Below, piece after piece: positions 1,682 through 44,685 of a DNA stretch of 45,614 nucleotides. Position 1 is the stretch's first letter; each line of letters opens with the position of its first letter. A model generated the notes under the pieces. The model was given only the letters and a program-made list of their open reading frames with translations. It ran no database searches and was not told the DNA's origin. Made by a program: the position numbers and the translations under genes. The DNA comes from a bacterium (GTDB taxonomy: Bacteria; UBA9089; JAHJRX01). The stretch is from NCBI GenBank assembly GCA_030017825.1, contig JASEGW010000001.1, positions 1 to 45,614 of the forward strand, written 5' to 3'.

Positions 1682-2093
1682 GAATTGGGAGAAGATAGGT
1701 TATGCGATTGAGCAGGCTCTGCCTCCGATTGTTGATAGTCATAAGGCAGAGGGTAGGATGAATAGGATATTAGAGTCTATCTTAGCTGGGAAGATAGAAG
1801 TTCATGTCTTTGTAGTTTACACTGATGAGCGTCCTACTGTTTATGGCATTGTATCTACAGCGATAACAAACGCAGTTGACAGTGATAATAAGGAATTGTT
1901 GATCTATTCCCTCTATGCAAGTCATTCGTTAAATAGAGAGCTTATTTTTGAGGGTCTTGAGTTGATTAAAAAATATGCAAGATCGCAAGAATGTGCAGCT
2001 ATCTCTGGTTATACTAATATTGCAGGGTTAAAGAGACTTATTGAAAATGCAGGTGGAAGCTCAAGTTTCACTTATTTGCGACTGGAGGTTTAA
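1641..2093 (+). CDS. Hypothetical protein in the virion module
   Basis: Track ORF 1635..2093. ATG 1641 is preceded by AAGAGG. No motif recognised. Confidence 0.5.
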   Translation: MLRMLKFYPDQIVRNWEKIGYAIEQALPPIVDSHKAEGRMNRILESILAGKIEVHVFVVYTDERPTVYGIVSTAITNAVDSDNKELLIYSLYASHSLNRELIFEGLELIKKYARSQECAAISGYTNIAGLKRLIENAGGSSSFTYLRLEV

Positions 2094-2100
2094 AACAAAC

Positions 2101-2982
2101 ATGAAAATTTATAAGAGGGTCGTTTTCAACCTGCGAAGGGAGGTTATTGAAGAGGATAGTTATGAATATATAGGGCCTATAGTAGAATGTGGAAGTGGTG
2201 GTGGTGGTTCTTCTGGAAAATCTGACTGGCCAGAGTATATGAAAACGAAGCATGGATCTTGGTTGAGTGAGATGGATACACTTATACCAGCAACCAATCC
2301 ATTTCTTGGAGTAGTTGCATATAATCCAGCAACAGTTATTACGGCTCTAGCTACAAGTCTTTCCAATTTTGTAGCTTTCTACACTTCTATAGGTAATACT
2401 CTAACAACATTCAAAGCTATGTGGAGTGGATGGGTTACTACTGTCACTGGTGGAATAACAAGTGCTCTTACTACCGCATTAGAAATTAGTGGAATTCCAG
2501 AGTTTGAGGCTGGAATGAGAGATATAAATGCTGTGCAGACGAGTTCATTTGTTCTTGGCAAATCTATGTTGTATGCTAGGGTTGGACTTGAAGCAGCCAA
2601 ACTTGCTCTTATGAATACAAACCAAGCTGTGGACTTAACTATGAGATATGGAGAGACACTTCGTGGCCAACTCGCTGCTCAAATGGATTATTCAAAGATT
2701 GTTATAATTGCTTATAAAGAGCAGCTGGAGAAGCAAATAGATATAGATGCTGAAGAGGCTAAGTGGCCGTTCTTTGAGTTTAGAGAAGCTGGAGCCCTAC
2801 TTGGTTCTATAGGTGGTTCAGCTGCAATGCAAGGGGCAGGTAAACCAAATCCTATGGCTAGTGCTCTTGGCGGAGCCATGGCTGGTGCAGCAACTGGCGC
2901 TGCTGTTACAGCCGGTAACCCTCTTGGAGCTTTAGCTGGTGCAGTAATAGGTGGAGTTGGCGGATTTCTATCTGCACAATAA
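2101..2982 (+). CDS. Internal virion protein candidate (T7 gp14 position) with a Gly/Ala-rich hydrophobic C-terminus
   Basis: ATG 2101 lies after GGAGG. It has a GSGGGGSSG linker and a C-terminal GGAMAGAATGAAVTAGNPLGALAGAVIGGVGGF segment. It precedes two larger core-like ORFs. Confidence 0.5.
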   Translation: MKIYKRVVFNLRREVIEEDSYEYIGPIVECGSGGGGSSGKSDWPEYMKTKHGSWLSEMDTLIPATNPFLGVVAYNPATVITALATSLSNFVAFYTSIGNTLTTFKAMWSGWVTTVTGGITSALTTALEISGIPEFEAGMRDINAVQTSSFVLGKSMLYARVGLEAAKLALMNTNQAVDLTMRYGETLRGQLAAQMDYSKIVIIAYKEQLEKQIDIDAEEAKWPFFEFREAGALLGSIGGSAAMQGAGKPNPMASALGGAMAGAATGAAVTAGNPLGALAGAVIGGVGGFLSAQ

Positions 2983-3029: not shown

Positions 3030-4568
3030 ATGCCTTATTTAGATTATGGTGGTGGTAGTTTAGAAGATGTATTGATGAGGAGGCTGGGAAGTGGAGGTCA
3101 GATGTTTACGCCTACTGGTGAAAGCCCTCCAGCACTTAGACAATTTGGTGAGATGTGGGAACCTGGTAAATCTATCATATCCCTTCCACCACCGGCTGCA
3201 GCATTAGGAGCAGCTGCTCCTGGTGGCGCTATGAAAATGTTTCAAAATCTTAGTCCATATATGCTGCAAATGGGTACTGCTTTAATGAGGGGAAGAGATC
3301 CTATGACTGGTGCCCCGACTGAGACAGTTGGAAGTCAGCTTGGTGGAATTGCATCAAAGGCTTTTGAAAGTCAAAGACTTAATGAAGCACTTCGTAAAAT
3401 GATAGCTTCACAGTTGAGTGGAGGTGGAAGTTTTAGTGAAGGCCAGCAAGTGGGATTATCCGGTGCTGATGTTGCTGGCCTTACTCCTGAACAGATTTCA
3501 GGATTATATGGCACTGGTTTACAATTAAGAGCTGCTGAACGTAAGGCTCCACTTGAGGCACTTGCAGTTATTTCTGAAGCATACTCAAAGATTATGAGTG
3601 GAGAGGCGAAGCCTGCTGAGATGGAGGCTCATCTTATGACTGCTGAGAAAGCACGTCAAGCTCTTCGTGATGCGCCTATTAAGTATGAAAATGAGCTATT
3701 TTTTAAGGTTGAGGCTTTGAAGAAGGCTGATGCTGAGATTGATGAGATTAGGCAAAGAACTAAAGCTAGTAAGGCTGCAGTTGAAGAAATTCCAATAGAG
3801 AGGAAGAAAAAGAAAGCAGAAACTGAAAAGATTGAGCAGGAAACTGAAGCAATTAAAGCCAAACTTGATCCTCAGCAGACTAGACTTCTTAAGTTTGCAG
3901 AAACTATTGGGTGGAAGGCAGTAGATGCAGGAAATGTCATTGAACTTCGTGATCAGGCTACTGGTGCTTTAATGACTACTTTACAAGTTGGTCCTAAACC
4001 TGAAGTTGCAGCTGAGGGTGAGAGAAGGAAGTTAAAATATACTGAAGAAGTATATAGTATAGTTGCACCTCGTTTGGTTCCAGTTTTAGAAGAACAATAT
4101 AAAGCAGCAGGAAAAGGAAGACAGGTTGAACTGAATCAGCTGCTTTCTATGTTACGCTCATACACAACTGGTAAAATAGATGCTGGCACTTTAATGTCAA
4201 AACTAAGTTCTGAGAATCAAAGTTTATTTGAGAAATTGGTAAATATTAGGATTAAAAATCCAGAACTGTCTGAACCTGAATTTGGAGGAATTGTCCGATC
4301 TCTTCTTGGTACTAAATCTGTTACACCAACTGAGTTAGTTCCGCCGCCTAAAGATAGAATAGAAACTCTTAAAGAGAGGATGAAGATAGGCGCAACTATT
4401 AGAGTTCCAACAGATGAAGAAATCACTGCTCAGTTGAAGGGGAAACCTCCTCAAGTATATGAATCACAACACTTTAGAGTCAAGTGGGACGGAATCAAAG
4501 GTATTATTACACGTAAACCACTGCCTACTACTGGGGTGCCTTCTGAATTATATCGTGGAACACCATAG
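3030..4568 (+). CDS. Internal virion/core protein candidate (gp15 position), coiled-coil rich
   Basis: GGAGG lies 7 nt upstream. The product is 512 aa with a K/E/A-rich central region. The call rests on synteny. Confidence 0.5.
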   Translation: MPYLDYGGGSLEDVLMRRLGSGGQMFTPTGESPPALRQFGEMWEPGKSIISLPPPAAALGAAAPGGAMKMFQNLSPYMLQMGTALMRGRDPMTGAPTETVGSQLGGIASKAFESQRLNEALRKMIASQLSGGGSFSEGQQVGLSGADVAGLTPEQISGLYGTGLQLRAAERKAPLEALAVISEAYSKIMSGEAKPAEMEAHLMTAEKARQALRDAPIKYENELFFKVEALKKADAEIDEIRQRTKASKAAVEEIPIERKKKKAETEKIEQETEAIKAKLDPQQTRLLKFAETIGWKAVDAGNVIELRDQATGALMTTLQVGPKPEVAAEGERRKLKYTEEVYSIVAPRLVPVLEEQYKAAGKGRQVELNQLLSMLRSYTTGKIDAGTLMSKLSSENQSLFEKLVNIRIKNPELSEPEFGGIVRSLLGTKSVTPTELVPPPKDRIETLKERMKIGATIRVPTDEEITAQLKGKPPQVYESQHFRVKWDGIKGIITRKPLPTTGVPSELYRGTP

Positions 4569-4576
4569 GAGATAAC

Positions 4577-7500
4577 ATGACTGAAGAAATTTTTATTCCA
4601 GTAGAAGAAAAGATGGGTAGAGCACCTGAGTTTATTCAGGGAGGAACTGAATCATTTGTACCTGTTGGGCCACTAAAATCAGCTGATATGCTTGATTATT
4701 TAAAAGAGCCAGTTGAGTGGGTTAAGTCTGGACTGGGTGGACTTGCAAGAGGAATGGGAGCTGTTTTTAAGACTGCAGCAGTTTTAATTCCAGGTGCTGA
4801 AGAAATTTTAAAGCCTAATATCACTGCACTTGAAGAAGCTACTGAATGGTGGGAACCTAAGGAAACTGCACCTGGACAGGTTAGTAAATGGGTTCGTAGT
4901 GCAGCACATTCTATAGGGCAATCTACTACAACTGGAATTATTGGAGCAGGTGTAGCTTATTCTGCTGGACTTATTGGACTTCCTGCTATGATTATTGGTG
5001 CTATTCTTTCAAAAGGCGGATTTTTTGGTGGAGCTGATTGGTATGATCTGACTAAAGATATTGAGAAGGCTGCTATAAATGCTGGTGCTACACCTGAAGA
5101 AATTAGGATCTTGCAGAGTGAATTTGCAGCATGGAAAGCAGCTCATGCAGCTGCTGAGGTGGTTGGTGAGATTGGGCCTGATTTAATTACAGCAAGGGTT
5201 ATTGGGCTGACAGGAAGCCCTCTTATTCGAGAACCAATTAAGCGCAGTATTATGTCTGTCTTTGGCGTATTCGCTAAAAAAATGGGCTGGGCTCAACTTG
5301 CTGAAGGTACTGGTGAACAGTTTACAACTGCAGTTCAATATAGAGCGACTGAAAAGATTGGTTTACCACAACCTTCATACTGGGATCAAGTTATTGATAC
5401 TGGTGCTGTTACTGCAATACAGACTGGATTTATGGCTGGCGTTGGTATTTCTGTAGCCAACCGTACTCGTGGTAGAAGTGTTGAAGCCTTTAAAAAAGAG
5501 ATGAAGCTGGAAATGTCAGCTAAGTTGGTTAAAGATGGAGTTGACAAGGATACAGCTGATACGATAGCTGATACAATTATAAAGAAGGCAACTAAGTCTG
5601 ATTTAGTTGATGCTGCTATTGCTGAACTTGAAAGTAGAGAGAAGGCTAAGAAAGCAACGAAGAAAGAGCGTGCTGTCAAGAAGGAGGAGAAGAAGGAGAA
5701 AGTAGTTGAAAAAGCAAGAGAAACAATTAATATAATAATGGCTCCTGAAGCTGTGACTAAGGAAGAATTTGTTGAAGTTAAAGAAGAGAAGCCAACAGCT
5801 CGTGAAGAAAAGCTTGCTAAATTAACAGCTGAAAGGAAAACTTATCTTGATAGTCTTGTAGAACAAGTTAAGGGTTTGGAAATAGCTGGGAGAATCAGAG
5901 TTGAGGAGCTATCAACAGATGAACAGCAATACCTTATAAGTAAGGGAGTTACATTTGATACTGATAGGATGGGCAAGCCTACTATTGGATATTCTCAAGA
6001 AAGAAGAGTTGAAGATTTAAGAACTAAAGTAAGAACGATTCGTGAAGAAAAACTTGCCAAACTAAAAGGTGAAGCACCAACAGGACTTATGCTTCCGGAA
6101 GCAGAACTTCCAAAGCAAGAAGTTTCATACATACGTCTTGAGCCTTCACTTGAGTCACCTGAAATTCCGAACGTTATTGTAAAAGATCTATCAGGACAGC
6201 CTGTTGTTTTCAATCCTGATATTCATACATTAGCTAATATTGACAAGGCAACTGCTAGACGAGATATTGGAAGCTGGGTACCAGTAGCAAAAGTTGAAAC
6301 AACTCGTGAAAGACGTATACGTATACTTAGAGAGGCTGGACGTCTACCTAAACCTACAGTAGAGGAAGTTACAGTACCAGGAGAGCGTGGTCCTCAAATT
6401 GAAGCTATCGCTGCTATTAAAAAGATGTTGCCTGGCTTCATTGAGCATGTTGCTGCTATGTCTAAGAAAGGCTGGAATATTGAGGACTTTGTGAATGATC
6501 CAGATGTTAGAGCAGACTTGGAGGAGATTGGTGTTCCTGAAGATCGATATTATGACCTGATTTTGGATGTTAAGGAAGAGTCAGGTGCTATGACATCTGT
6601 TGATATTCTTGATAAGCAGATCAGAGATGAACAGAGAAGATTGGATGAGGATTTCGCTGCCATTGATAAAATGAAAGATGAGGAAGCAATGCAGCGCTTT
6701 CCTGTTGAAGTTGATAATTATTATGATGCTGATCAAAAAAGATGGGTTCAGCTTGAAAAAGAAAACATAGCTGAAAATATTGAGCAGCAGTTTGTTAATC
6801 CTCCTCCAACTCTTGAGGAAGTACCTATTGTTGTTGAAGTATCTAAGGAGAAAAAGAAGGCATTTTCGTTAAAGGTAACTTCAAATACAGTTTGGTATCT
6901 TCCTGAAACTGAAGCTATGGCACAGCTTGATGCACTCAAGAGAGTGAAAATGGATTGGAACTCAGATATTGATACAATCCTCCACGCCCTTGGAATTCAT
7001 ACTACAGCTGCCTATCACACAAGTGGAACCGTTCCATTTGAAGCGCTTGGGAAGCTTAGAGATAACCTTGATTATTTTAAGAAGAATATGTCAAATGCAG
7101 AGTTTGCAAAAGTTGAAAATACTGTTGATAGCCTTCGTAAATATATGATAGCTGTCTCAGACACTATTAAAGCCACTGAACCTACGATAAGCGAAAAAGC
7201 TCCAATTAGACTGTCAGATATGGAAAAGTATAATTCTGCTGTTAAAAAAGTAATTGCTGAGGAACTGGTCAGATTAGTAAGTGCTGGAGGTAATGCAAAC
7301 TCTTTAATTAACTTCATTCTTGAGCGGAGAGAAAGGTTTACTGGATCACAAGCTGCTCTCGCTGAATTTTACAGTTCTCCCCATATTAGGCGGTATCTGG
7401 AGAAAGTTACTATGGCACTTGGCACTGGCTTCTATAAGTCTGGAGCATATTACTTATGGGCTGGTAAGAGTGAGGGAGATGTTGCAGGCCCTGCAGTTGT

Positions 7501-10500
7501 CTTCGAGCCATTCTATGCAGATAGGGGAATGGACTCAGTTGGTGAAGATATACTGCATGAAGTTACTCATGCATTAACTGCAGAACTTTTATATGACTCT
7601 AAAAGTTTTCGTGATAAAGTTTCCCAACTTCGACTTAGAGCTATGGATCAGCTTGGAGAGAATGATAGACGAGTCCTTTTTGGGCTTCAAAATGATGCAA
7701 GTGTATTCCACAGTCTGGGATTTGAAAATTTAGGGTTTTCTCGAGGGTGGGAATATGCATCTATATACTATGGCCTCACCAATGATAGGGAGTTTATTTC
7801 TGAGGTTTTTACATCTCCAGCAATGCAGGAGTTCTTATCTGCAATCCCTGTCGAAACCTCTCAAGAAGGAGTCTTCTCTAGTTTATGGCAGAAGTTTAAA
7901 GAGATTCTATCAGTATCTATTTTTGGAAAGCCTCCATCTGAGAGAGAATCGACACTTCTTGATGAAGCTCTTAAGATTGGGCACGAAGTAATTGAGGCAC
8001 AGGCTGCACATGCTGGTTTAGCATATGAAGGAAGAGAACGAAAAGAAGATGCTGCTACCCCCCGTATTAAATCTATCTCTATTGAAGATACTTTAAAGCA
8101 TCATCCTTTGAAAGGCTCAGGAGTTCATGCAGGCGTTGGAGGCCCACTTCATCAAACCGTACATATAAAAGAATCACCTATTGATGTACCTGTGTTAGCG
8201 ACATATGTAGAATCTCCATTATTTGCACTGCGTGACCACCCAGATGCTCTTAAATTTGCAGAGAGGGCAATTGAGGCATTAGGTATATGGTCATATAATA
8301 GGGGCATTGGACTTATGGAGGTTGATAGAATGGAGAGAAATTTATCTCAACCTGAAAGAGAAGAGGTCACTTCAATTATGAAGGAAATTGAGAATGGGGA
8401 AGTTATTGACCTCGACAAACTTGACCCCAAGATTAAACAGGGTGTTATTGATCTTCGTAAATTTCTTGACCTTTATAAAGAGAAGCACAAAAAATTTCTT
8501 AGGGAGTCATTAGTACTGGGTGCTAATTCAACTGAAGCTCGGATTCTTGCAGATGTCCTTATTGGTGGTAATAATGTTATTGATGCTACTAAGAAGTGGA
8601 ATAGATATGCTCGTGACTATAATTTAACAAGTCAAGATGAAAGTAGGATGGCTACCACTACTTATGCAAACGTGCTTGAATTACTTAAAGAGTGGAAGGA
8701 AATCGAAAACTTTGGTATCAAAGATTACATTACCCATGCAATGAGGGGATCAATCGCATTATTTGACTCAGAAGGTAGAGTTGTATCATTTGCTCAGACT
8801 AAGAAGAAAGCAGTTGATGAGGCGCTGAGATATTTACAGCAGAATCCAACTATTGACTCTCTAACAGTTGACACTACTTACCGTCTTGATAAAGACTTTC
8901 AAACACTTGTTTCTCAAAAGTATTATAGGGTAATGAAGAGCAAGATTGCTAAAATCATTGATCAGCATACTAAGGATATAGATAAAGATCTTGCTGAAAG
9001 ACTAAAGGCTGTATTGCCAGGCAGAGGTATTGCAATCAAACCTCAAAAAGTTTGGTCTCAGTTTTTACAGGAACGTGAAGAAGTACTGCCTGGAGAGAAA
9101 GACATATTTGATATTCTCCCTTTATACGTTCATAGTATAGAGAAGAAGCACGCTATTGATCCTTACATTATTCAGTTAAGAGATCATCTATCCGACTTTA
9201 ATGATAGACCAAATGTTAAAAAGATGTTGGAAGATCAGTTAGAAGCGATTAGAGGTCAATATAGTGTTGGTGATGCAATAGTCGATGATCTAATGAAGAA
9301 GTTTGGATTTGAAACATCTTTTGCTTATGCTCGAGGTACTGGTGCTGCTCGTGTCTTGATTACTAATTTAAAGTTAGGATATAGGCCAGTTGCTGCTTTA
9401 ATTAATTTACTATCAGGCATGGGGCATGTCTGGGTCAAAACTAGTGCTAGGTATATGATAGAGGCAAATCGTATGTTGTCGACTAAGGGAGGAGAGGATT
9501 TCATCAAAAAGAACGCAGCCTCACTAGGTACTTCAATAGTTGAAAGTATGGGTGGAGATCTGGAGAATAGGCTGAGATGGTATTCTCCGCTGAAAATATT
9601 TCAAGCACCTGAGCTTCCAAACAGAAAGCTTTCTTTTATGACATCTTACCTATTTGCCAGAGGAGAATTTGGGCATGATGAAGAAACTGCACTTGAATTC
9701 GCTAAGAGATCTGTTGACCTCCAGGAATTTAATTATAGTGTTGCTGCCGTTCCAAAAATTATGAGGGGGCCAACTGGAAGGACAGTATTTCAATTCAAAC
9801 CCTACCTTGTAAAAGAGATTGAGTTTATTCGTGGTTTGAAGGGAGCAAATCAGTGGGCCAAGTATTTGACAATGCAGGCTGTAATTGGTGGACCCAGAGG
9901 TTTAATGGTCACACTTAAGAGCCTTCCCGTAATAGCAGCAATAGGAGGAGTGGGGTGGTTGGATGAGTTAGATACATGGCTTAATAATAATTATCCACGT
10001 CTATCTAGGGGAGTATTTGGATTCTTCGGCATTGATGCTTCAGCTCCTGCTGCATTTCAGTTTCCTGAAAAAGCTGCAGATTGGGCAGGTGTTTTAATAT
10101 CTGATATTGTCAGGTTTGGAAAGGATGTAGTTCAGCCATTTATAGATGGAGAAAGCTATATTTGGGAGGATATTAAGAAATATACTAAAGGTACTATTCC
10201 AATATGGAGGCTCTGGTGTGACGCCTTCAATGGTATAATGAGTGAAGATGGTTGGATTCTTGACGATAAAGGAGATAATAAATATAAAGTGGAAGACTGG
10301 ACTGATATTCTTAAGATGGTTGGCGGCTTCAAACCTCTAAAAGCATCTGTACAGGAGCTTGAAGTCAGAATGGCAGAAGAGTTAGAGAAAAGGGAAAGAA
10401 AGCAAGCTAATAAGATTGTTGAGCAGATTGTGAAGCGGAGTAGAATGATTGATGTAGAAATTGTTACTGATGAATTAATTGAAGAAGTTGGTACTCATGC

Positions 10501-10642
10501 TATCAGCCCTGATGCTATTTTAGCTGCGATTGAAAGAAGCCATCTTGACCCTCAAACTAAACAACTGTTAAAGGCCAAGATGGCTAGGAAAATGAATTTG
10601 TGGCAGCGACAACTTCCTACCAGAGAGTTCAGAGGGTATTAA
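4577..10642 (+). CDS. Giant 2021-aa virion/ejection-type protein with an HExxH zincin-like motif (gp16 position)
   Basis: A single uninterrupted ORF with SD AGGAGA. It has N-terminal hydrophobic Gly/Ala segments, a K/E-rich linker and HEVTH at nt 7556-7570 (about residue 994). It is the last gene of the structural arm. Confidence 0.55.
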   Translation: MTEEIFIPVEEKMGRAPEFIQGGTESFVPVGPLKSADMLDYLKEPVEWVKSGLGGLARGMGAVFKTAAVLIPGAEEILKPNITALEEATEWWEPKETAPGQVSKWVRSAAHSIGQSTTTGIIGAGVAYSAGLIGLPAMIIGAILSKGGFFGGADWYDLTKDIEKAAINAGATPEEIRILQSEFAAWKAAHAAAEVVGEIGPDLITARVIGLTGSPLIREPIKRSIMSVFGVFAKKMGWAQLAEGTGEQFTTAVQYRATEKIGLPQPSYWDQVIDTGAVTAIQTGFMAGVGISVANRTRGRSVEAFKKEMKLEMSAKLVKDGVDKDTADTIADTIIKKATKSDLVDAAIAELESREKAKKATKKERAVKKEEKKEKVVEKARETINIIMAPEAVTKEEFVEVKEEKPTAREEKLAKLTAERKTYLDSLVEQVKGLEIAGRIRVEELSTDEQQYLISKGVTFDTDRMGKPTIGYSQERRVEDLRTKVRTIREEKLAKLKGEAPTGLMLPEAELPKQEVSYIRLEPSLESPEIPNVIVKDLSGQPVVFNPDIHTLANIDKATARRDIGSWVPVAKVETTRERRIRILREAGRLPKPTVEEVTVPGERGPQIEAIAAIKKMLPGFIEHVAAMSKKGWNIEDFVNDPDVRADLEEIGVPEDRYYDLILDVKEESGAMTSVDILDKQIRDEQRRLDEDFAAIDKMKDEEAMQRFPVEVDNYYDADQKRWVQLEKENIAENIEQQFVNPPPTLEEVPIVVEVSKEKKKAFSLKVTSNTVWYLPETEAMAQLDALKRVKMDWNSDIDTILHALGIHTTAAYHTSGTVPFEALGKLRDNLDYFKKNMSNAEFAKVENTVDSLRKYMIAVSDTIKATEPTISEKAPIRLSDMEKYNSAVKKVIAEELVRLVSAGGNANSLINFILERRERFTGSQAALAEFYSSPHIRRYLEKVTMALGTGFYKSGAYYLWAGKSEGDVAGPAVVFEPFYADRGMDSVGEDILHEVTHALTAELLYDSKSFRDKVSQLRLRAMDQLGENDRRVLFGLQNDASVFHSLGFENLGFSRGWEYASIYYGLTNDREFISEVFTSPAMQEFLSAIPVETSQEGVFSSLWQKFKEILSVSIFGKPPSERESTLLDEALKIGHEVIEAQAAHAGLAYEGRERKEDAATPRIKSISIEDTLKHHPLKGSGVHAGVGGPLHQTVHIKESPIDVPVLATYVESPLFALRDHPDALKFAERAIEALGIWSYNRGIGLMEVDRMERNLSQPEREEVTSIMKEIENGEVIDLDKLDPKIKQGVIDLRKFLDLYKEKHKKFLRESLVLGANSTEARILADVLIGGNNVIDATKKWNRYARDYNLTSQDESRMATTTYANVLELLKEWKEIENFGIKDYITHAMRGSIALFDSEGRVVSFAQTKKKAVDEALRYLQQNPTIDSLTVDTTYRLDKDFQTLVSQKYYRVMKSKIAKIIDQHTKDIDKDLAERLKAVLPGRGIAIKPQKVWSQFLQEREEVLPGEKDIFDILPLYVHSIEKKHAIDPYIIQLRDHLSDFNDRPNVKKMLEDQLEAIRGQYSVGDAIVDDLMKKFGFETSFAYARGTGAARVLITNLKLGYRPVAALINLLSGMGHVWVKTSARYMIEANRMLSTKGGEDFIKKNAASLGTSIVESMGGDLENRLRWYSPLKIFQAPELPNRKLSFMTSYLFARGEFGHDEETALEFAKRSVDLQEFNYSVAAVPKIMRGPTGRTVFQFKPYLVKEIEFIRGLKGANQWAKYLTMQAVIGGPRGLMVTLKSLPVIAAIGGVGWLDELDTWLNNNYPRLSRGVFGFFGIDASAPAAFQFPEKAADWAGVLISDIVRFGKDVVQPFIDGESYIWEDIKKYTKGTIPIWRLWCDAFNGIMSEDGWILDDKGDNKYKVEDWTDILKMVGGFKPLKASVQELEVRMAEELEKRERKQANKIVEQIVKRSRMIDVEIVTDELIEEVGTHAISPDAILAAIERSHLDPQTKQLLKAKMARKMNLWQRQLPTREFRGY

Positions 10643-11168
10643 TCTTTGGTTCTACTCCATCTTTTCCAAATGTTTTCTTGAGTAGAAAATTTCCAGCAAT
10701 ATGATGGATGACAATTCCCTCAGGCTTCATAAATCCTGGAGCAGCCATACTTCCATTACTAAGAAGCTCACTTAGTATTTCATGGACTGGAGGAGGAAAG
10801 TCTCCTGTCCAGAGTGTAGGAACTACACTACAACAGGCAGGACGAGTGTAGGGATCGCCCCACTTCTTTAAGTTAAATAGAGAAAACACCCTCTCTTTTA
10901 TTCCATACCCTCTGTTAATCTTATACCCCCACCACTCTCCAAAATGCCAACCAGGGCCAAGCTCTAATAACTCATCTTTATTTTCATGCGCCCACTTTGC
11001 AAAGCCGTGGTTGTCTTTTTCAGGAGTTATCCATTGAGTTCTTGATCCAACTAGAAAAACGCCTTCATTAGAAATATAGATGCTCCCATTAGTTCCATCA
11101 ATTTTCTCTGTTACAACGCAGTCTCTTGAGTATCTATAAATCTTTGGGAATGCTATAAAGTCGGTCAT
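10629..11168 (-). CDS. Minimal ATP-dependent RNA (or DNA) ligase-like nucleotidyltransferase
   Basis: Motif I is TEKIDGTN (KxDG). Also present are FGEWWG, PEGIVIHH and LLKKTFGK, in the covalent nucleotidyltransferase order. SD AGGGGTG; palindrome copy 2 lies just upstream. Confidence 0.65.
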   Translation of the reverse strand: MTDFIAFPKIYRYSRDCVVTEKIDGTNGSIYISNEGVFLVGSRTQWITPEKDNHGFAKWAHENKDELLELGPGWHFGEWWGYKINRGYGIKERVFSLFNLKKWGDPYTRPACCSVVPTLWTGDFPPPVHEILSELLSNGSMAAPGFMKPEGIVIHHIAGNFLLKKTFGKDGVEPKINTL

Positions 11169-11424: not shown

Positions 11425-11753
11425 TACTCTCCCTCCTTTTTTAGTTTAATAATCTCAATGGGCGGAAGCGCCTTATATCTTCCCTTCTTATCCCTTAATT
11501 TTTTAGCTGGCCATCTATCATCTGCCCACATTGCCAATGGAGTTCCAATAATAGAACCAAAGACGTTAAATAATATATAAGTCATATCTGTTATATATAG
11601 TGTAATCTCTAATGAAATCAAGCCAGTTATTAAACCACTGAATAAGGCAGCTTGTATTTTATGACCACTTGACACTCTTCTTAAATAGAAGACTACCAAT
11701 ATGTCATCAGTTACGCTTAATGTAAACACTATCAAGCCTATTAGCCAACTCAT
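11424..11753 (-). CDS. Small integral membrane protein (about 3 TM segments)
   Basis: Hydrophobic stretches (WLIGLIVFTLSV, AALFSGLITGLISLEITLYI, ILFNVFGSIIGTPLAMW). SD GGAGGG. Confidence 0.55.
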   Translation of the reverse strand: MSWLIGLIVFTLSVTDDILVVFYLRRVSSGHKIQAALFSGLITGLISLEITLYITDMTYILFNVFGSIIGTPLAMWADDRWPAKKLRDKKGRYKALPPIEIIKLKKEGE

Positions 11754-12956
11754 CTACCCTCCAATCCCATACTTTTCTTCCATTGGCTTTGTACCTTTAT
11801 AAACAAGCACAGGGTCATTTCCAATAGTTGCTATTGTTATAACCTTCATCTGCTCTAATGTTTTAATGACAGCATTCATATCTTCAAGATCTGCGTCATT
11901 ATGAAACTCCCTTATTAAATCAGACGTCCTAACATTATGATTCAGTGCGATATAGCTCCATGCTCTCACTAACACATCAGCCATCTTTGCTTTTCCAACT
12001 CCACTAAAAACATAAGACATTCTTTTTTCAACATCTAACATAAATCCTATTGCTCTTTCTAAGTCCCTCAGTTTCAAAACCATATCATCTGTTCTTGAAA
12101 CATTTGCTATTATGCTTAATTTTAGTGCATGAATCGCTCTCCTCTCAATGTATCCACTCAATCTCGTATCACTGAAGGGTGGGTTATCATCCTGTGCAGG
12201 GTACCACTGATTCCAAAAATCTAAATACTCTTGTGATACTTTAAAGCTGCCGGCGAGCATTAACATCTGTTCTAAATCTGTCTGTAATACTTCCCTCAAT
12301 TCCAACTCCTCCTTTGTTAAAAAAGGACAGGTAACTGACTTAGCTTTTCTCTTTTCATACACTAAGATCATTCGAGCTGTAAGGCCGCCGCCGATAGCAT
12401 CAGGAGGTAACGTACTCCTTAATAATTCAGGGGTGGTTGCACCTAATAAATTTACCCATACTCCAATAAGCTCATCGGTGCCCTGATTTTTAGTACGATA
12501 TGTCCAGCGGTCTTTGCAGTCATACCAGTCGCATAAATCAGCCATCATCTGCAAATTGTTATAGCCTAAAAACACAGTCAGCTCTTGACTATGAACGGTT
12601 AGTGAACAGTGGATTAGAGGACGACCTTGCACATCAATCTGTGTATTACTACTCAGCTTCAAATCTTTAATTAAGGCTTCTCGAGTTATTGCTTCAGCAG
12701 CCAATCTAATTCCTAAATCTCTAAGAAATGGATAGCCAAGATTCATGGCGGTTCCCTTTCTCGATCCTGAAGGTCCAACTAATACAACATATAGATTTGG
12801 GAATATATTAAAGTGTCCCCAAGGAAGGCTGCACTTCCTCTGAAGCATCGCTGCAATAGTGGAGATAGCCGTCCACAATCTAAAGCTCCTCCTGGGCTCG
12901 GTATTTTCAGTGAATTCTAAAAATGAGTCTATCCAATCATTTAGTTTTCTTGCCAT
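11754..12956 (-). CDS. P-loop NTPase, putative replicative helicase (DUF3987/VirE-like by eye)
   Basis: Walker A VLVGPSGSRKGTAM. The product is 400 aa and lies next to the polymerase. The family assignment is unverified. Confidence 0.5.
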   Translation of the reverse strand: MARKLNDWIDSFLEFTENTEPRRSFRLWTAISTIAAMLQRKCSLPWGHFNIFPNLYVVLVGPSGSRKGTAMNLGYPFLRDLGIRLAAEAITREALIKDLKLSSNTQIDVQGRPLIHCSLTVHSQELTVFLGYNNLQMMADLCDWYDCKDRWTYRTKNQGTDELIGVWVNLLGATTPELLRSTLPPDAIGGGLTARMILVYEKRKAKSVTCPFLTKEELELREVLQTDLEQMLMLAGSFKVSQEYLDFWNQWYPAQDDNPPFSDTRLSGYIERRAIHALKLSIIANVSRTDDMVLKLRDLERAIGFMLDVEKRMSYVFSGVGKAKMADVLVRAWSYIALNHNVRTSDLIREFHNDADLEDMNAVIKTLEQMKVITIATIGNDPVLVYKGTKPMEEKYGIGG

Positions 12957-13315
12957 CTCAGCCCCTCAAGAATTTTATATATTGCTGAGATGCTCAAGTT
13001 ATATTTAAAGGCTAACGAACCCACGCTAGCTCCTAATTTTTTAGATTCTCTTATTTCTTCAGCATCCTTCTTATTAATTTTTTGGCCAGTAGTTCTTTTA
13101 CAAATAACCATGTATGCTGCATTTTCTTTTGCAGTGCCATTATATAGATGAGCTGGGTTAACACATCTTCTATTGTTGCAGATATGACATATCTGTCCTG
13201 TTAGTGGAATATCTACTCTCTTATAAATAAACCACGCTAATAAAGACGCATGTACTATCGAATCACCTAAGCGAACGCTTGCATACTTATTCTTCCATTC
13301 CCAACAACTCCCCAT
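12941..13315 (-). CDS. HNH homing endonuclease (HNH_3-like) with a C-terminal HTH
   Basis: CWEW...ICHICNNRRCVNPAHLYNGTAKEN. The track ORF extends to 13429, where an ATG has a GGAG SD, and overlaps the polymerase tail. The start is uncertain (13315 or 13429). Confidence 0.7.
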   Translation of the reverse strand: MGSCWEWKNKYASVRLGDSIVHASLLAWFIYKRVDIPLTGQICHICNNRRCVNPAHLYNGTAKENAAYMVICKRTTGQKINKKDAEEIRESKKLGASVGSLAFKYNLSISAIYKILEGLRWQEN

Positions 13316-15833
13316 TATCGGATTCACTACTCTGTAAGATATACTTGAGTGGAACTTTCGGGTGAGTGAGGATGCATTCTTCATAAATACTTTTAAGTTG
13401 CGTTGCCAGTTCACCAGCGCTATCTCCATATTTTACTCCTATCATGTTTCCAAGATTAGTTCCTATTTTTACATCAACTGGTACAACAAACTTAGAGCCA
13501 TGCCACTCTAAGGGAGTTGTCATAAGATTTACTAACTTTAGAAGTGCTTCAGCATGCTCTATCCAACTATAAGATAGAGGAATTTGAAATAGAATAGCAT
13601 CGTGAATTTGGTTGAGGAGGTCGAGTATTTTAAAGTTGCCTTGGTCTTCATAGATTGGGATAATAGCTTGTCTGTTCACCTTATCGGCGATTGTACTTTG
13701 TGGAATGTAAGCATATAAATCTTTAAATAGGTCGTCTCCCCACTGGCCTAAAAATAGTTGTTTTCTCCCAAATAAATTTGTAAGTACTCTATTATTCTTT
13801 CTACAAGCCTCCACTATCCAGTTCCAATATTGCCTAACACCAGGATACATTTGATGATAGCGTGCATGGATAAACCTACCCTCTGCTTCTGGTAAATCAC
13901 AATCGAGTGAGAACTTAACATAGCCCTCTCCATAATTAAAAGCATGATTTGACTTCTTACCCCAAAACCTTTGACTATGTTCACCGTTGCCCATAGGACT
14001 ACTACCTGGCTCATTACTAACTCGATTAAAAGGGATATTAAGAATTAAGGAAGCAGTCTGTCTGTGAACGTCTCTGCCAGTATCAAATGCTTCCTTCATC
14101 AACGGCTCAGGTGCGATATTAGCTACAATTCTATTTTCACCCTGATTTAAATCAAGATGATAAAGTAAGCAGCCCTCATCTACTATAACAAAAGGATAAA
14201 ACATTCTTGGCAATGTCTGTACATTACCACCTTCTCCTAAAATATCCTTAGATGCTGACAATCTTCCATATCTTGAGCCGATAGGGTTCATTGAAGAATG
14301 GAGTCTGCCATCACTGCCAATTACCATATCTAGATATGAAGTTTTAAACTTATGTGCCTTTCTATAATCTCTCATCATTACTGCAACAGGGATGCCCCTT
14401 CGGGCTAATCTTCTTATTGCATTTTGATCAGTCGTCGGGCGGCCTTTCTTCGTATACGGCTCAATACCTAACTCCTTATAAAAATAGGTGGCAACTTGAT
14501 CAGGACTCCTTGGGTTAAATGAGTGCCCAACAGCTTTCACAATCTTGGCTTCTAGTTCTATCAATCTTTTATCTGCTTCTTCATTTGCCTTCTTCAATCC
14601 TTCAACATCTATTTTCATTCCTCTCTCTTGCATATAGACGCAGGGGCCAATCATTCTTCGCTGCCACTGGTATGTTTCCCAATTTCCCTGCCTCACTAAT
14701 TCAGCATCCAACTTTGGCCTAATCTCAGAGACAATAGCAGCATCCTTTGCATTATACACGCCAAACTTCCTCTCATCAAATAGCTTTGTTTGCTTCTTTC
14801 GCTCATCCTTATAATAGGGTTCTCTTGTGTATAAAGATGTGATGAAGCCTAAGCTCTTTGGAAAGTCAGGGAATAAAATGCCCATCTGAACCATTGTATC
14901 TTCCATATTCTTGACTACTATTCCAAGTTTGCGAAACATGAAAGCAGCATCAAATGTTATATTTTGATTCTCCTTCACTATTTCTGTATTCTCCATCAAT
15001 TCAGCAATTAACCTCCATACGTGTGCCTCTTGAGGTGGCGTTAGGAAGGCTTCGCTTTGTGAAGTAAACGAAATTGAAATAGCATCACTTGGAGACTTAG
15101 CTATTGCCACATGGCTTATTTCTTCATTCAAAACCTCAATATCAACTGCCAACCTCTTCTCAACTTTACAACTCTCCAAATATCCACAGATTTCTGCATA
15201 TGAAGGCAGCACTATTAAGTTGCGAGATGGCAAACTTATAGTAGGTGTTTTGGATTCTTCAAGTATCCTTTTTAGATCAGCCTTGATAAAGTACTTGAAG
15301 ATAGGATTTTTATTTGGAAGTGCTGCTGCAGGGTGGATAGTTGGAATGACCTTCATTCCAGGCCAGAAGTTACCTTCCAGTATTGAGCCTCTCCGCTTTG
15401 TAATTGCAGTTAAGCCTGTTAAAGCATATAGTGAAACGTTGCCAGCAGGCACGAAGACATTGGCTCTTAAACCTTTTAATTCCTCAATTAACTTATCCCT
15501 ATATTTAATGAAAGCTGGAGTAATTGTAACCCCCCCTTGTGAGTTAACTCTAAACCAAGGTGTTAAATCGTCCTGATAGGGATCAAATTTACTTTTTCCA
15601 GGTCTCTCCTTTATAACATTAGTAAGGTAAATATCAGATCGTGTTAGGCCTACTGAGTGCATTAACTCAGTCATCAGTTTGCCAGCAGGTGCGTTTGGGC
15701 TAAAAGGCCTACCCTCCTTTACTTCAATGACACCAGGAGCCTCACCAATCCAAGCTATCTTTGCATCATGCGAGCCTTCACCCCCTACACGTTTACCTAC
15801 ATAAAGGTTTGCATTTTGAAAAGGGTTTGTCAT
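13287..15833 (-). CDS. Family A DNA polymerase with an N-terminal UDG-like (family 4/5-type) domain and a 3'-5' exonuclease domain
   Basis: UDG motifs GEAPG and HPAA. Exo motifs VDIEV, NITFDAAF and YNAKDA. Pol motif A is DLNQGENRI, motif B is RFWGKKSNHAFNYG and motif C is IHDA. Confidence 0.85.
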   Translation of the reverse strand: MTNPFQNANLYVGKRVGGEGSHDAKIAWIGEAPGVIEVKEGRPFSPNAPAGKLMTELMHSVGLTRSDIYLTNVIKERPGKSKFDPYQDDLTPWFRVNSQGGVTITPAFIKYRDKLIEELKGLRANVFVPAGNVSLYALTGLTAITKRRGSILEGNFWPGMKVIPTIHPAAALPNKNPIFKYFIKADLKRILEESKTPTISLPSRNLIVLPSYAEICGYLESCKVEKRLAVDIEVLNEEISHVAIAKSPSDAISISFTSQSEAFLTPPQEAHVWRLIAELMENTEIVKENQNITFDAAFMFRKLGIVVKNMEDTMVQMGILFPDFPKSLGFITSLYTREPYYKDERKKQTKLFDERKFGVYNAKDAAIVSEIRPKLDAELVRQGNWETYQWQRRMIGPCVYMQERGMKIDVEGLKKANEEADKRLIELEAKIVKAVGHSFNPRSPDQVATYFYKELGIEPYTKKGRPTTDQNAIRRLARRGIPVAVMMRDYRKAHKFKTSYLDMVIGSDGRLHSSMNPIGSRYGRLSASKDILGEGGNVQTLPRMFYPFVIVDEGCLLYHLDLNQGENRIVANIAPEPLMKEAFDTGRDVHRQTASLILNIPFNRVSNEPGSSPMGNGEHSQRFWGKKSNHAFNYGEGYVKFSLDCDLPEAEGRFIHARYHQMYPGVRQYWNWIVEACRKNNRVLTNLFGRKQLFLGQWGDDLFKDLYAYIPQSTIADKVNRQAIIPIYEDQGNFKILDLLNQIHDAILFQIPLSYSWIEHAEALLKLVNLMTTPLEWHGSKFVVPVDVKIGTNLGNMIGVKYGDSAGELATQLKSIYEECILTHPKVPLKYILQSSESDNGELLGMEE

Positions 15834-16191: not shown

Positions 16192-17538
16192 CTAAATACT
16201 ATAATCATAGCTCTTATACCTCCCAAATCTCCCTTCGTGTACTCTTAGCATAAAGGAGTCTTTATATTCCCGACTCAACTCATACCCAAAAGCCTGCATT
16301 CCTAAGTTAGACGCAGCCAGTAGTGTATTTCCACTCCCAAGAAACGGAACCATAACTCTACTTCCTGCATTAGCAAATGTACTTAAAATATCCTCCATCA
16401 TTTCAATAGGCCGCTCAGTTTGATGTATACGTCTTGCTGGAGCAACCCAAGGGAAGTCAAACAAGTTTGATCTTGTTTTTTTAACAATCCCACTTCCTTT
16501 GTGTGCATAGAAAAACATTTCGTAATCATTAGATAGGTATAAATCTGGCTGCATAGTTTGGCCCCTTGGTTTCGCCCAGATTCCAGGAATTCTCCTACCT
16601 TTAAATCCAACCTGTCTCATCATTTGATAAACTGGATCGAACCAGGGCTCAGGTCCAAACCAGGCTATAATCCAGCCACTTGGAGATAATACTCGGTAGC
16701 ATTGTTGAATAGTTTTCAACATAAAACTTGGATATTCATCTTCCATAACCTCATTATAATACTTCATATGAGGCTCTCTTGGCCCCCTTAGCTTTCTGAC
16801 TGAAAGTAAGTCTATCGCATATGGAGGATCTAACTCAACAAGGTCGATTGAGCCATTAGGTACGTTTTCTACCTCTTCATGAAAGTCTCCAATTATAAAG
16901 CTATCACACAGCTTCATCAGTTCAACAGGTACACTTCCCCTGTTCTCTTCAACCCTTTTAGCCAGTTCAGCTTTGACAAGCGTCTCCTGCATCATCATTA
17001 ACAGTTTACGAGCATCATCTTTCGTTTTACATTCACGAAGTTCAGGAATTTTCTCAACAGCATGCGCCAGCATTATATCTCCAACGATACTTGCAGGACT
17101 TTTAACTAATAATGAAGCAGTATCACGCTTACTCCACCCCTTTGCACCTGGACTTGTTGAAGTTTTTTCACCATGAATTGCTACTTGTAGATTATGTATC
17201 TGCTCACACAACCTTATTTTCTCAAGCCATGATAGGTCGAGACGATGCATATTTTCGGCTAACTCAATACTTTTATGCTCAAACTCTGTTAATTCTCCGT
17301 GGTAAATTCTACAAGGGATTAATTGAGTATTGAGTTCTTTTAGTGCCCTATATCGTCTACCGCCGGCTAGTAATAGATAGCCAGTTGAAGTTTGTTTTAC
17401 TGCGATTGGCTGAATGATGCCTTCAGCTTTAAGTGAAGCCTTCAATTCTTCTAAGTTTCCGTAGTCTTCCCTTGTTCTTTCACCTTCACTAATCAAATCT
17501 ATAGGAATCATATCAAGTTTAACTTCGCCCAAGCTCAT
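16192..17538 (-). CDS. ParB-like nuclease domain fused to a beta-class DNA methyltransferase (N6A/N4C type)
   Basis: The N-terminus reads IQPIAV...LLAGGRRYRALKEL. DPPY comes before the FLGSGNT AdoMet motif. The AGGAGG SD fits ATG 17538, which overlaps the upstream TGA. Confidence 0.8.
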   Translation of the reverse strand: MSLGEVKLDMIPIDLISEGERTREDYGNLEELKASLKAEGIIQPIAVKQTSTGYLLLAGGRRYRALKELNTQLIPCRIYHGELTEFEHKSIELAENMHRLDLSWLEKIRLCEQIHNLQVAIHGEKTSTSPGAKGWSKRDTASLLVKSPASIVGDIMLAHAVEKIPELRECKTKDDARKLLMMMQETLVKAELAKRVEENRGSVPVELMKLCDSFIIGDFHEEVENVPNGSIDLVELDPPYAIDLLSVRKLRGPREPHMKYYNEVMEDEYPSFMLKTIQQCYRVLSPSGWIIAWFGPEPWFDPVYQMMRQVGFKGRRIPGIWAKPRGQTMQPDLYLSNDYEMFFYAHKGSGIVKKTRSNLFDFPWVAPARRIHQTERPIEMMEDILSTFANAGSRVMVPFLGSGNTLLAASNLGMQAFGYELSREYKDSFMLRVHEGRFGRYKSYDYSI

Positions 17539-17753
17539 CACTGTCCTCCTAATAATGCAGCTAATTTTCTCTTCTGCTCTAAACTTAATCCATCCAATAA
17601 CTTATCCATAGAGGCATCTGCTTTTGCAGCTGCTTTTTTGACAGCTGGCTTTTCCTTCTTCATCCTTCTACTCGCTCTTAACTCCAAAATTTTAGCTTGC
17701 AGTTCCTCAGTTGACATTTGACTAATACTTTTTTTGAGTTCTTCAAGTATCAT
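17538..17753 (-). CDS. Small lysine-rich hypothetical protein (71 aa)
   Basis: SD GGAGGTG. No motif recognised. Confidence 0.5.
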   Translation of the reverse strand: MILEELKKSISQMSTEELQAKILELRASRRMKKEKPAVKKAAAKADASMDKLLDGLSLEQKRKLAALLGGQ

Positions 17754-44221: not shown

Positions 44222-44685
44222 AAGGAAACACAGTTGATGAGCAACTGGCAAGTGCTGATAAAGCACTTTCTCATCTGGAGCGTAGGATTAATGCGAGGAG
44301 TATTGTAGCACCACTAACTCCTATGATTATATCTGGGTTTTGTAAAGAAGATGAAGATGGAGTTATTCTAAAAGTACTTCTTCCTATTTCTGGCTACATT
44401 ACTAAACTCTCTTTTTTCATAGATGATATAGAAGATGTTGAGTTTCTAAAGAAAAACTTCTTAGTTATTTCTATTGAGGCACGTTTAGCAGATGGAACTT
44501 TGGTAATGAAGAAATTTCCAACTAAACAACTAGCTGCTGAAGTTTTTACTTCGTATAAAGTTGAGGCCAATAGTTGTATAACTGTGCTTGTAAATACAAA
44601 GGTTAGAGGAGTTTGGTATGGCTTTGTAGTAGAGCCAGAACTCTCAATCAAGAGAAAAGTGGATGTCTCTATTTTGGAGGAATAA
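44203..44685 (+). CDS. Virion structural protein (160 aa)
   Basis: SD GGAGG. It is translationally coupled to the next gene (TAATG). Confidence 0.45.
   Translation: MGYTIIKGNTVDEQLASADKALSHLERRINARSIVAPLTPMIISGFCKEDEDGVILKVLLPISGYITKLSFFIDDIEDVEFLKKNFLVISIEARLADGTLVMKKFPTKQLAAEVFTSYKVEANSCITVLVNTKVRGVWYGFVVEPELSIKRKVDVSILEE

Follow-up and report, generated by a model that had tools for sequence, protein, structure and literature searches.

The extended IVP-D family (for internal virion protein D) delineated by Hardies et al. 2016 (PMC4819975) unites the T7-, phiKMV- and epsilon15-type proteins, phiRIO-1 gp37, the F116 group (H66 gp60) and, from N4 gp50, the C-terminal domain. Internal virion proteins (IVPs) are described there as hosting domains "destined for the cytoplasm". 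According to a review of ejection proteins, gp16 runs from a periplasmic N-terminal part through transmembrane helix (TMH) I, a cytoplasmic hub and TMH II to a basic tail, and gp16-type proteins range in size from 609 to 1337 amino acids (aa). Infectivity depends on the basic C-terminus of T7 gp16 (PMC8954989). Herein, we describe P0001, the 2021-aa product of a giant gene on contig JASEGW010000001.1 of the bacterial assembly GCA_030017825.1 (positions 1 to 45,614; this whole stretch is referred to as the window). Our analysis indicates that P0001 very likely serves a podophage, one whose capsid and portal are of SU10 type, as its large internal virion (ejection) protein, and that it represents a polyvalent form of the extended T7 gp16/IVP-D family.

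A second body of work concerns polyvalent proteins. Iyer, Burroughs, Anand, de Souza and Aravind 2017 (PMC5512222) identified the zincin-like metallopeptidase (MPTase) as the commonest hub domain of these proteins and proposed that it processes the multidomain polypeptide; a link to ejection proteins is not discussed there. The C-terminal domain of the N4 virion RNA polymerase (vRNAP) consists of an HExxH subdomain, C1, and a ~110-kDa all-alpha subdomain, C2, without structural relatives (PMC13434306). For phage phi24B, the 2811-aa polyvalent protein gp47 was found in virions by proteomics and proposed to be an ejection protein (10.64898/2026.04.10.717836).

Results and Discussion

Layout of P0001

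P0001 is encoded by a single uninterrupted, ATG-started open reading frame (ORF) of about 6 kb on the plus strand (4577-10642), which makes up 13% of the phage genome and ends the structural arm as its largest gene. An earlier sequence-only reading had described an ORF of this size closing the structural arm, with a Gly/Ala-rich hydrophobic segment near the N-terminus, a K/E-rich linker, an HEVTH motif and a hydrophobic stretch in the C-terminal region. These observations were confirmed, and a convergent replication arm comes next. The protein has five parts, namely an N-terminal module (N-module), the K/E linker, a middle region, an HExxH domain of ~330 aa and a C-terminal module (C-module) of ~810 aa (Table 1). 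The linker (aa ~335-480; 17% E, 16% K) is the least conserved part of the family. The two strongly hydrophobic segments, aa 120-151 and aa 1775-1795, are calls of a hydropathy scan only. HEVTH (aa 994-998, nt 7556-7570) lies inside GEDILHEVTHALTAELLY and is the sole HExxH in P0001, with 0.04 expected per protein from composition. P0001 is 50% longer than the classical gp16-type maximum.

Searches with the whole protein returned little. The Pfam scan gave zero matches at E ≤ 1, the PHROGs scan gave weak matches to unnamed giant families only, tblastn against 50,697 phage records gave nothing at 1e-3, and phmmer against the PDB gave no match. The middle region (aa 480-868) had no stand-alone homologs in the search. 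Eight full-length relatives share 56-64% identity with P0001; in a second group of homologs, the similarity is confined to the C-terminal ~810 aa.

The HExxH Domain

When aa 869-1202 were aligned with 12 relatives, the H, E and H of the motif were invariant. Across 130 aligned domain cores, H994, E995 and H998 were each conserved at 100%, E1072 at 98%, Y1065 at 93% and F1073 at 91%. The resulting signature, HExxHAxT ... YGLxNxxEFxAxxF, is the gluzincin pattern of two His and a Glu on a later helix. Exactly one HExxH was present in 13 of the first 16 family members, always ~210-230 aa upstream of the C-module; because it is kept at this constant distance, HEVTH is far beyond chance. When 1.84 billion proteins were searched with a profile of the domain, 435 matched at E ≤ 1e-3, and nearly all of these are 1-5.6 thousand aa long. 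The matches centre on the catalytic helices, and HExxH is kept in the matched region in 146 of 168. Between close relatives, the HExxH domain is 34-45% identical versus 70-80% for the C-module, with the catalytic residues fixed. Since the H-E-H-E set is invariant across such divergent sequences, a working metal site is argued for, and the HExxH...E domain is most likely an active zinc metallopeptidase.

AlphaFold models cover aa 869-1202 and aa 1190-2021. The model of the HExxH domain (predicted local distance difference test, pLDDT, 73; 75-95 over model residues 10-270) gives the order helix 55-73, strands 77-80, 89-92 and 105-108, helix 120-139 with HExxH, an insert of ~60 residues, and helix 202-211 with the Glu. 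This predicted topology is that of the zincin MPTase core with a variable insert as defined in PMC5512222. Both marks of a gluzincin, the HExxH helix with a conserved later Glu helix and the order of the core fold, were found (alignment, AlphaFold model). When the model was compared with the PDB by Foldseek, 15 of the top 16 ranks were zincins, including anthrax lethal factor, SPRTN and 3e11 ("predicted zincin-like metalloprotease"); these ranks are non-significant and lend the modelled zincin fold weak support. Homologs of the domain touch the Pfam families SprT-like and Peptidase_M4 (thermolysin) on the motif, below threshold only. The zincin-like module proposed by the sequence-only reading is thus upheld by the invariant HExxH, the conserved Glu and the predicted topology, and not by the fold search itself.

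Homology to phiKMV-Type and PhiM1 Ejection Proteins

A 13-sequence profile of the domain matched two chains in the PDB: 9sfn_G, "Internal virion protein" (E = 8e-4), whose LHEAVHA aligned on the query HExxH, and 8vb2_A, "Tetrameric ejection protein (gp48)" (E = 0.017). By tblastn, 9sfn_G is a 1337-aa protein of phiKMV-like Pseudomonas phages and 8vb2_A is gp48 of Pectobacterium phage PhiM1. Both source proteins are the last and largest internal virion proteins, equivalents of T7 gp16, and each has its own HExxH and a downstream EF/EL helix. Comparison of the HExxH domain by hhalign gave E = 7.5e-4 (9sfn_G) and 5.5e-5 (8vb2_A), and the 130-sequence profile gave E = 3.6e-19 and 7.9e-15, respectively. 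This link is non-circular, because it persisted when the 43 members BLAST-similar to the two proteins were removed from the profile (E = 1.8e-16 and 7.9e-12) and when the profile was built from C-module family members alone (E = 1.2e-8 and 6.5e-4). T7 gp16 did not contain the HExxH domain by profile comparison.

The HExxH...E domain lies at about aa 380-570 in phiKMV-type gp43 (L002:7750-11763) and PhiM1 gp48 (L003:7708-11499). The HExxH region is unresolved in the published phiKMV-type (9sfn) and PhiM1 (8vb2) structures, and in the Ar-KM structure only gp43 residues 74-332 are modelled. Neither of the structural papers on these ejection proteins mentions HExxH, peptidase or zinc. Like P0001, the phiKMV-like protein (gp43 of Ar-KM/PPA-ABTNL, corresponding to phiKMV gp37) and PhiM1 gp48 are encoded by the last large gene of the internal-virion-protein block and combine an N-terminal Gly/Ala-rich hydrophobic region, the homologous HExxH...E domain and a long alpha-helical C-terminal part. 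They differ in their size of 1263-1337 aa and in lacking the N-module, K/E linker and middle region, and their C-terminal halves are not detectably related to the C-module by sequence.

The same comparison bears on a possible role in cell-wall penetration. Family scans recognised no muralytic domain in P0001 or its structural-arm neighbours, so the HExxH domain might be a cell-wall-degrading metallopeptidase that replaces the lysozyme/transglycosylase domain of T7 gp16 or phiKMV gp36; a function of this kind has been proposed for the gp47 metallopeptidase of phi24B (10.64898/2026.04.10.717836). However, the domain lies between the hydrophobic regions, which corresponds to the cytoplasmic part in the T7 gp16 model. 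The phiKMV-type phages have the HExxH domain plus a separate lysozyme in the gp15-like protein, and Caulobacter phage Kuura has a separate transglycosylase adjoining its homolog. The nearest fold ranks, lethal factor and SPRTN, belong to zincins that cleave proteins and not to muramidases or peptidoglycan peptidases. A muralytic function is therefore highly improbable.

The C-Terminal Module and Its Variable Cargo

The C-module occurs in at least 94 giant phage proteins, in which the N-terminal cargo varies (ART, InPase, methylase, SNF2, Zeta). With aa 1480-1900 as the query, 81 giant proteins (1148-2526 aa) were retrieved, most of them encoded on contigs of 40-49 kb; in precomputed annotation, a few of these carry ART-PolyVal, InPase or N6_N4 methylase domains. 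One member, P0017, combines SNF2-type helicase and Zeta-toxin domains with the C-module at its extreme C-terminus. The module reaches the C-terminus in 85 of 85 members, and the part N-terminal to it varies from ~340 to 1740 aa. In a census of 233 collected giants, the C-module ended a median of 8 residues before the protein end, and the N-module stood at the N-terminus of 42 (median start residue 43). The architectures were N-HExxH-C (17), HExxH-C (21), N-C (7), N-HExxH (18), C only (49) and HExxH only (120). A constant C-module under variable cargo looks like a delivery chassis.

Similarity to a recognised IVP-D member was found through H66 gp60 (3787 aa), which matched the C-module profile near its C-terminus (E = 9.7e-11; hhalign 97%). 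This protein is annotated "verified by mass spectrometry as part of the virion" and has two HExxH motifs upstream of the match. The F116 group and P0001 thus share a giant virion protein ending the structural genes, with HExxH motif(s) upstream of a homologous C-module core. H66 gp60 differs in its length, its two motifs and its S-adenosylmethionine (SAM)-methyltransferase-like insert, and only the ~100-aa C-module core aligns significantly. With the core (aa 1673-1754), tblastn matched giants of F116/H66/LKA5-type podophages and the "DarB-like" protein of Serratia phage Parlo. The NCBIfam profile NF032893 (tail-700, "PLxRFG domain-containing protein") aligned over positions 309-425 of 681 with aa 1675-1794 (E = 5.7e-11). 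A literal PLxRFG is absent from P0001, which has only PLKIFQ at aa 1671. Kuura_021 of phage Kuura and PVS_24 of Vibrio phage VS-ABTNL-3 matched the C-module at E ~ 1e-7, and the match to PaP2 gp25 was suggestive only. PVS_24 (L009:17815-23187) is annotated 'putative DNA methylase' and Kuura_021 (L007:18477-22553) 'hypothetical protein', and both end the structural arm. Judged by these matches, the two are probably mis- or under-annotated ejection proteins.

The AlphaFold model of aa 1190-2021, built from a 30-sequence alignment, is almost all helix (pLDDT 76, predicted template modelling score, pTM, 0.71). Foldseek of the C-module against the PDB gave a best E of 0.24, with no analogue and no polymerase; this is partly because the relevant regions of solved ejection proteins are unmodelled. 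Against BFVD, 60 matches were obtained at E ≤ 1e-3 (best 9e-16, TM about 0.5). They are terminal fragments of giants named DNA methylase, SNF2 chromatin-remodelling ATPase, large-polyvalent-protein-associated-domain, PolyVal ART or helicase, and among them are "Internal virion protein D" from the Roseobacter phages CRP-4 and CRP-5 as well as large proteins from the podophages ICP2, P12053L and CW02.

Taken with the HExxH domain, these results give P0001 the features by which IVP-D proteins are recognised. Its gene stands at the distal end of the tail/internal-virion-protein block, it shows significant similarity to recognised members (H66 gp60 through the C-module, phiKMV-type gp43 and PhiM1 gp48 through the HExxH domain), it is extensively alpha-helical over aa 1190-2021 in the AlphaFold model, and it has the two hydrophobic regions and basic C-terminus of the T7 gp16 model. 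The layout of hydrophobic region I, hydrophobic region II and basic tail mirrors that of T7 gp16, as far as a hydropathy scan can indicate. The T7 gp16 position assigned by the sequence-only reading is thereby backed by homology, through the HExxH domain to the phiKMV-like and PhiM1 proteins and through the C-module to H66 gp60.

P0001 also resembles the polyvalent proteins of PMC5512222 in its giant size, its late virion gene context and its HExxH + Glu MPTase with an insert between the catalytic helices. Members of its family combine the MPTase with ART-PolyVal, InPase, methylase, SNF2 and MuF-C, and homologs of the HExxH domain are partnered with MuF_C, InPase, AAA_34 + Helicase_C_4 and AAA_30/UvrD, all characteristic domains of polyvalent proteins. 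P0001 differs in having only one recognisable enzymatic domain and in giving no match to PF18818 or to the LPD models. The gp47 protein of phi24B is likewise a giant polyvalent-type protein of a podophage; the virion presence is that of gp47, P0001 being known from sequence alone, and gp47 carries other recognised domains (LPD5/LPD1/LPD38 + MuF-C).

The company that the C-module keeps raises the alternative that P0001 is mainly an injected anti-defence or host-takeover effector, in which the zincin cleaves host defence proteins and the protein has no essential DNA-conduit role. Consistent with this, ART-PolyVal, InPase, DNA methylase, SNF2 helicase or Zeta-toxin domains occur in relatives that share the C-module, the Parlo homolog is annotated as DarB-like antirestriction, and the HExxH domain evolves faster than the C-module around fixed catalytic residues. 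We nevertheless consider it unlikely. P0001 has no recognisable effector domain besides the peptidase, the same HExxH domain is present in the minimal, cargo-free phiKMV/PhiM1 ejection proteins, and the position of the giant gene is conserved in every relative examined, with no other gp16-sized gene there. The proposal of an injected polyvalent multidomain effector, made in the sequence-only reading, finds support in the polyvalent domains of family members, whereas in P0001 itself none is recognisable beyond the peptidase; the idea that the peptidase is directed against host defences found no support in the present data.

Comparison with N4 gp50 and the Polymerase Question

The one HExxH of N4 gp50 (LIHELVHAST, aa 2228) falls within C1, a subdomain of the C-terminal domain. 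The C-terminal domain has the same two-part layout (HExxH + all-alpha) in an ejected giant and the same HExxHAxT signature as P0001. In hhalign, the HExxH profile matched gp50 at 91%, over the 20 columns of the motif helix only. C2 has no detectable similarity to the C-module, and P0001 lacks a polymerase module.

In N4, the vRNAP is embedded in an IVP-D homolog with this C-terminal layout, and the window has no recognisable RNA polymerase gene, so P0001 could be a cryptic virion RNA polymerase of N4 or crAss type, as had been suggested from the sequence. The earlier statement that no such gene is recognisable elsewhere in the window held among ORFs >350 aa. All of these are accounted for, and the only polymerase candidate besides the giant gene is an 888-aa structural-arm ORF with no family match and no RNA_pol match. 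Podophages of related groups, the PaP2 type among them, are not known to encode an RNA polymerase of their own and use the host enzyme. P0001 gave no Pfam, NCBIfam or PHROG polymerase match and has no DxDGD, NADFDGD or T7-type A/B/C motif. The reported absence of A/B/C motifs was thus correct, whereas the reported absence of DxDxD was not; a single one, DIDKD (aa 1467-1471), lies in non-conserved alignment columns. Residues 869-2021 are taken up by the zincin-like domain and the all-alpha module, with no polymerase among their fold matches. The rest (N-module of ~300 aa, K/E linker and a private region of ~390 aa) is too small for a single-subunit polymerase. The N4 mini-vRNAP is about 1100 aa. 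An RNA polymerase was rejected for aa 869-2021 on motifs, families and folds and is very unlikely for the rest, which leaves the idea scarcely credible for P0001 as a whole.

Weighing the Assignment

Several results weigh against P0001 as a gp16-type ejection protein. The NF032893 score of 41.6 bits is below the curated cutoff of 100, so that by profile similarity P0001 is a distant relative of this family and, by NCBI's rule, outside its membership. The C-module showed no significant link to T7 gp16 (hhalign 2%) or to the C-terminal halves of the phiKMV/PhiM1 proteins (hhalign 12%, not significant), and no significant similarity to phiRIO-1 gp37 or N4 C2. What places P0001 in the gp16 family is therefore the similarity to H66 gp60, the HExxH domain and the fold matches to proteins known as IVP-D by annotation only. 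Direct homology of the C-module to T7 gp16 is not claimed, these comparisons not being significant. The best Foldseek match of the HExxH domain in the PDB had E = 0.55, which is not significant, and the Pfam MPTase-PolyVal model itself (PF18818) is among those silent on P0001. The structure models reach aa 869-2021, and aa 1-868 lie outside them. Presence in the virion is known for homologs only (H66 gp60 by mass spectrometry, phiKMV/PhiM1 by cryo-EM), and P0001 is known as a gene. Finally, in Desulfofustis phage LS06-2018-MD01, the closest cultured relative by capsid, the protein at this position had no similarity to P0001 by hhalign or hidden Markov model (HMM) and no HExxH-domain or C-module match. 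Since the two capsids are 49% identical, the gp16-position gene appears to have been replaced or to have diverged beyond recognition between related phages. The Desulfofustis phage gene in question encodes 1577 aa (L001:15927-20660).

Even so, the assignment of P0001 to a known class, the polyvalent-type ejection proteins in gp16 position, is well-supported, with peptidase activity predicted from the conserved residues.

Genome Context

The mapped features are given in Table 1. The last 16 bases of the window (45599-45614) are identical to the first 16 (1-16), and because of this terminal overlap the window is read as a circular assembly of a complete ~45.6-kb phage genome. In the circle, the structural arm runs from 28 kb to 45.6 kb and on from 1 to 10.6 kb, and the open-ended ORFs 44613-45614 and 17-1681 join to form the 888-aa gene, which is probably the nozzle (tubular tail B equivalent). 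The order on the plus strand is terminase, tail fibre, SU10-type portal, scaffold, capsid, six unnamed ORFs (248, 160, 888, 152, 313 and 512 aa) and the giant gene. The convergent replication arm on the minus strand comprises RNA-ligase-like, primase, HNH, family-A DNA polymerase, ParB-methyltransferase fusion, Sak4 and exonuclease genes. The RNA-ligase-like gene (10629-11168, minus strand) overlaps the 3' end of the giant gene by 14 nt (10629-10642), which leaves no room for an inter-arm terminator.

Table 1. Features mapped on the giant gene of the window and on two ORFs upstream of it
Feature	Position (nt)	Strand	Description	Basis
Giant ORF P0001	4577..10642	+	gp16-position internal virion/ejection protein (assignment very likely)	ORF call and synteny
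N-terminal module, aa ~30-330	4664..5566	+		local jackhmmer and census
Gly/Ala-rich hydrophobic segment, aa 120-151	4934..5029	+	candidate membrane-inserting region I	Kyte-Doolittle scan; analogy to T7 gp16 TMH I (PMC8954989)
K/E-rich linker, aa ~335-480	5579..6016	+	low conservation	composition and alignment
Middle region, aa 480-868	6014..7180	+	only in ~10 closest relatives
Zincin-like HExxH (MPTase-type) domain, aa 869-1202	7181..8182	+	predicted metallopeptidase domain	alignment, AlphaFold model, 435 homologs, phiKMV/PhiM1 homology
HEVTH (H994, E995, H998)	7556..7570	+	predicted zinc ligands and catalytic base	100% conserved in 130 domains
YYGLTNDREFISEVF helix with E1072	7766..7810	+	predicted third zinc ligand	conservation in 130 domains; model helix 202-211
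All-alpha C-terminal module, aa 1203-2015	8183..10621	+	in at least 94 giant phage proteins, always C-terminal
Most conserved C-module core	9599..9958	+		matches NCBIfam NF032893 (tail-700/PLxRFG) and H66 gp60
Hydrophobic segment, aa 1775-1795	9899..9961	+	candidate membrane-inserting region II	hydropathy scan; analogy to gp16 TMH II
Basic C-terminal tail, last 25 aa	10565..10639	+	7 K/R, 1 D/E; compare T7 gp16 basic C-terminus	composition
512-aa ORF directly upstream of giant gene	3030..4568	+	candidate gp15-like (IVP-C) ejection protein	position and size only
313-aa ORF	2041..2982	+	possible small ejection or tail protein	weak Gly-zipper at C-terminus

The 512-aa ORF gave no family match, and an ORF of 519-535 aa is kept at the same upstream place in relatives. 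Distant members with other cargo (P0011 with ART + InPase, P0049 with methylase) have the same gene order as the window, namely SU10_MCP, SU10_adaptor, several ORFs, a 519-579-aa ORF, the giant gene and a convergent replication arm. The 49% identity of the capsid is to that of Desulfofustis phage LS06-2018-MD01, and the capsid is distantly akin to those of Kuura, Tiera, a Vibrio phage, EBPR podovirus 3 and PaP2-type Pseudomonas podophages.

In the replication arm, the HNH endonuclease ORF (12941-13429, minus strand) lies between the primase and the family-A DNA polymerase (13287-15833, minus strand), which it overlaps by ~140 nt. Its position is the same in relative L006, and the relatives' polymerase has an N-terminal UDG domain. 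The ParB_N-N6/N4 DNA methyltransferase fusion (449 aa; 16192-17541, minus strand) is kept in relatives L005 and L006 and in the Desulfofustis phage. The G+C content of the phage contig is 39.8%, compared with 31.1% in its 1.8-Mb genome bin, and its tetranucleotide correlation is r = 0.85 versus ≥ 0.95 for all other bin contigs ≥ 15 kb. The placement of the phage contig in this bin is doubtful. The sole 23-bp match to the bin (window 11486-11508, C35:4461-4483) was not a spacer of clustered regularly interspaced short palindromic repeats (CRISPR) and lay in no CRISPR array.

Proposed Mechanism

From its homologs, we infer packaging, ejection and membrane topology for P0001; its peptidase activity and substrate are likewise predictions. 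A few copies would be packed in the capsid core during assembly and would exit through the portal and tail ahead of the DNA upon infection. A Gram-negative ejectosome model is assumed here from the relatives of the phage. The hydrophobic regions aa 120-151 and 1775-1795 would then insert into the cytoplasmic membrane, such that the ~1600 residues between them, with the zincin-like domain and most of the C-module, would face the cytoplasm, where the C-module may form a hub for DNA entry. The zincin would act on the ejection protein itself or on partner proteins, with cleavage serving maturation, module release or dismantling of the ejectosome; a host protein as its target is also allowed. Self- or partner-processing would be the most parsimonious role, given that ejection proteins without cargo contain the domain as well.

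A bolder reading, which we put forward tentatively and do not favor, is that an HExxH zincin plus a large all-alpha C-module is the ancestral working core of gp16-type ejection proteins, with the zincin an active, essential protease that processes itself or gates the ejectosome. Such a core might extend across the P0001 family, the F116/H66-type giants, the N4 vRNAP C-terminal domain and the minimal phiKMV/PhiM1 tetrameric proteins, a span we regard as equally tentative. Under it, protease activity in phiKMV-like phages would have gone unnoticed because the region is disordered in every structure and unmentioned in the structural papers.

Conclusions

Herein, our findings turn a 6-kb hypothetical gene into a defined, very likely ejection protein with mapped modules, and remove the idea of a hidden polymerase. 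The HExxH...E domain, with its invariant catalytic residues, is also present in the gp16 equivalents of phiKMV-like and PhiM1-like phages, which serve as model and therapeutic phages. Our results join two literatures that do not cite each other on the link between zincins and ejection, that on polyvalent proteins (Iyer 2017) and that on ejection proteins (Hardies 2016; Cingolani-type structural work). The zincin in phiKMV-like gp16-type proteins raises the testable idea that proteolysis may be part of podophage genome delivery.

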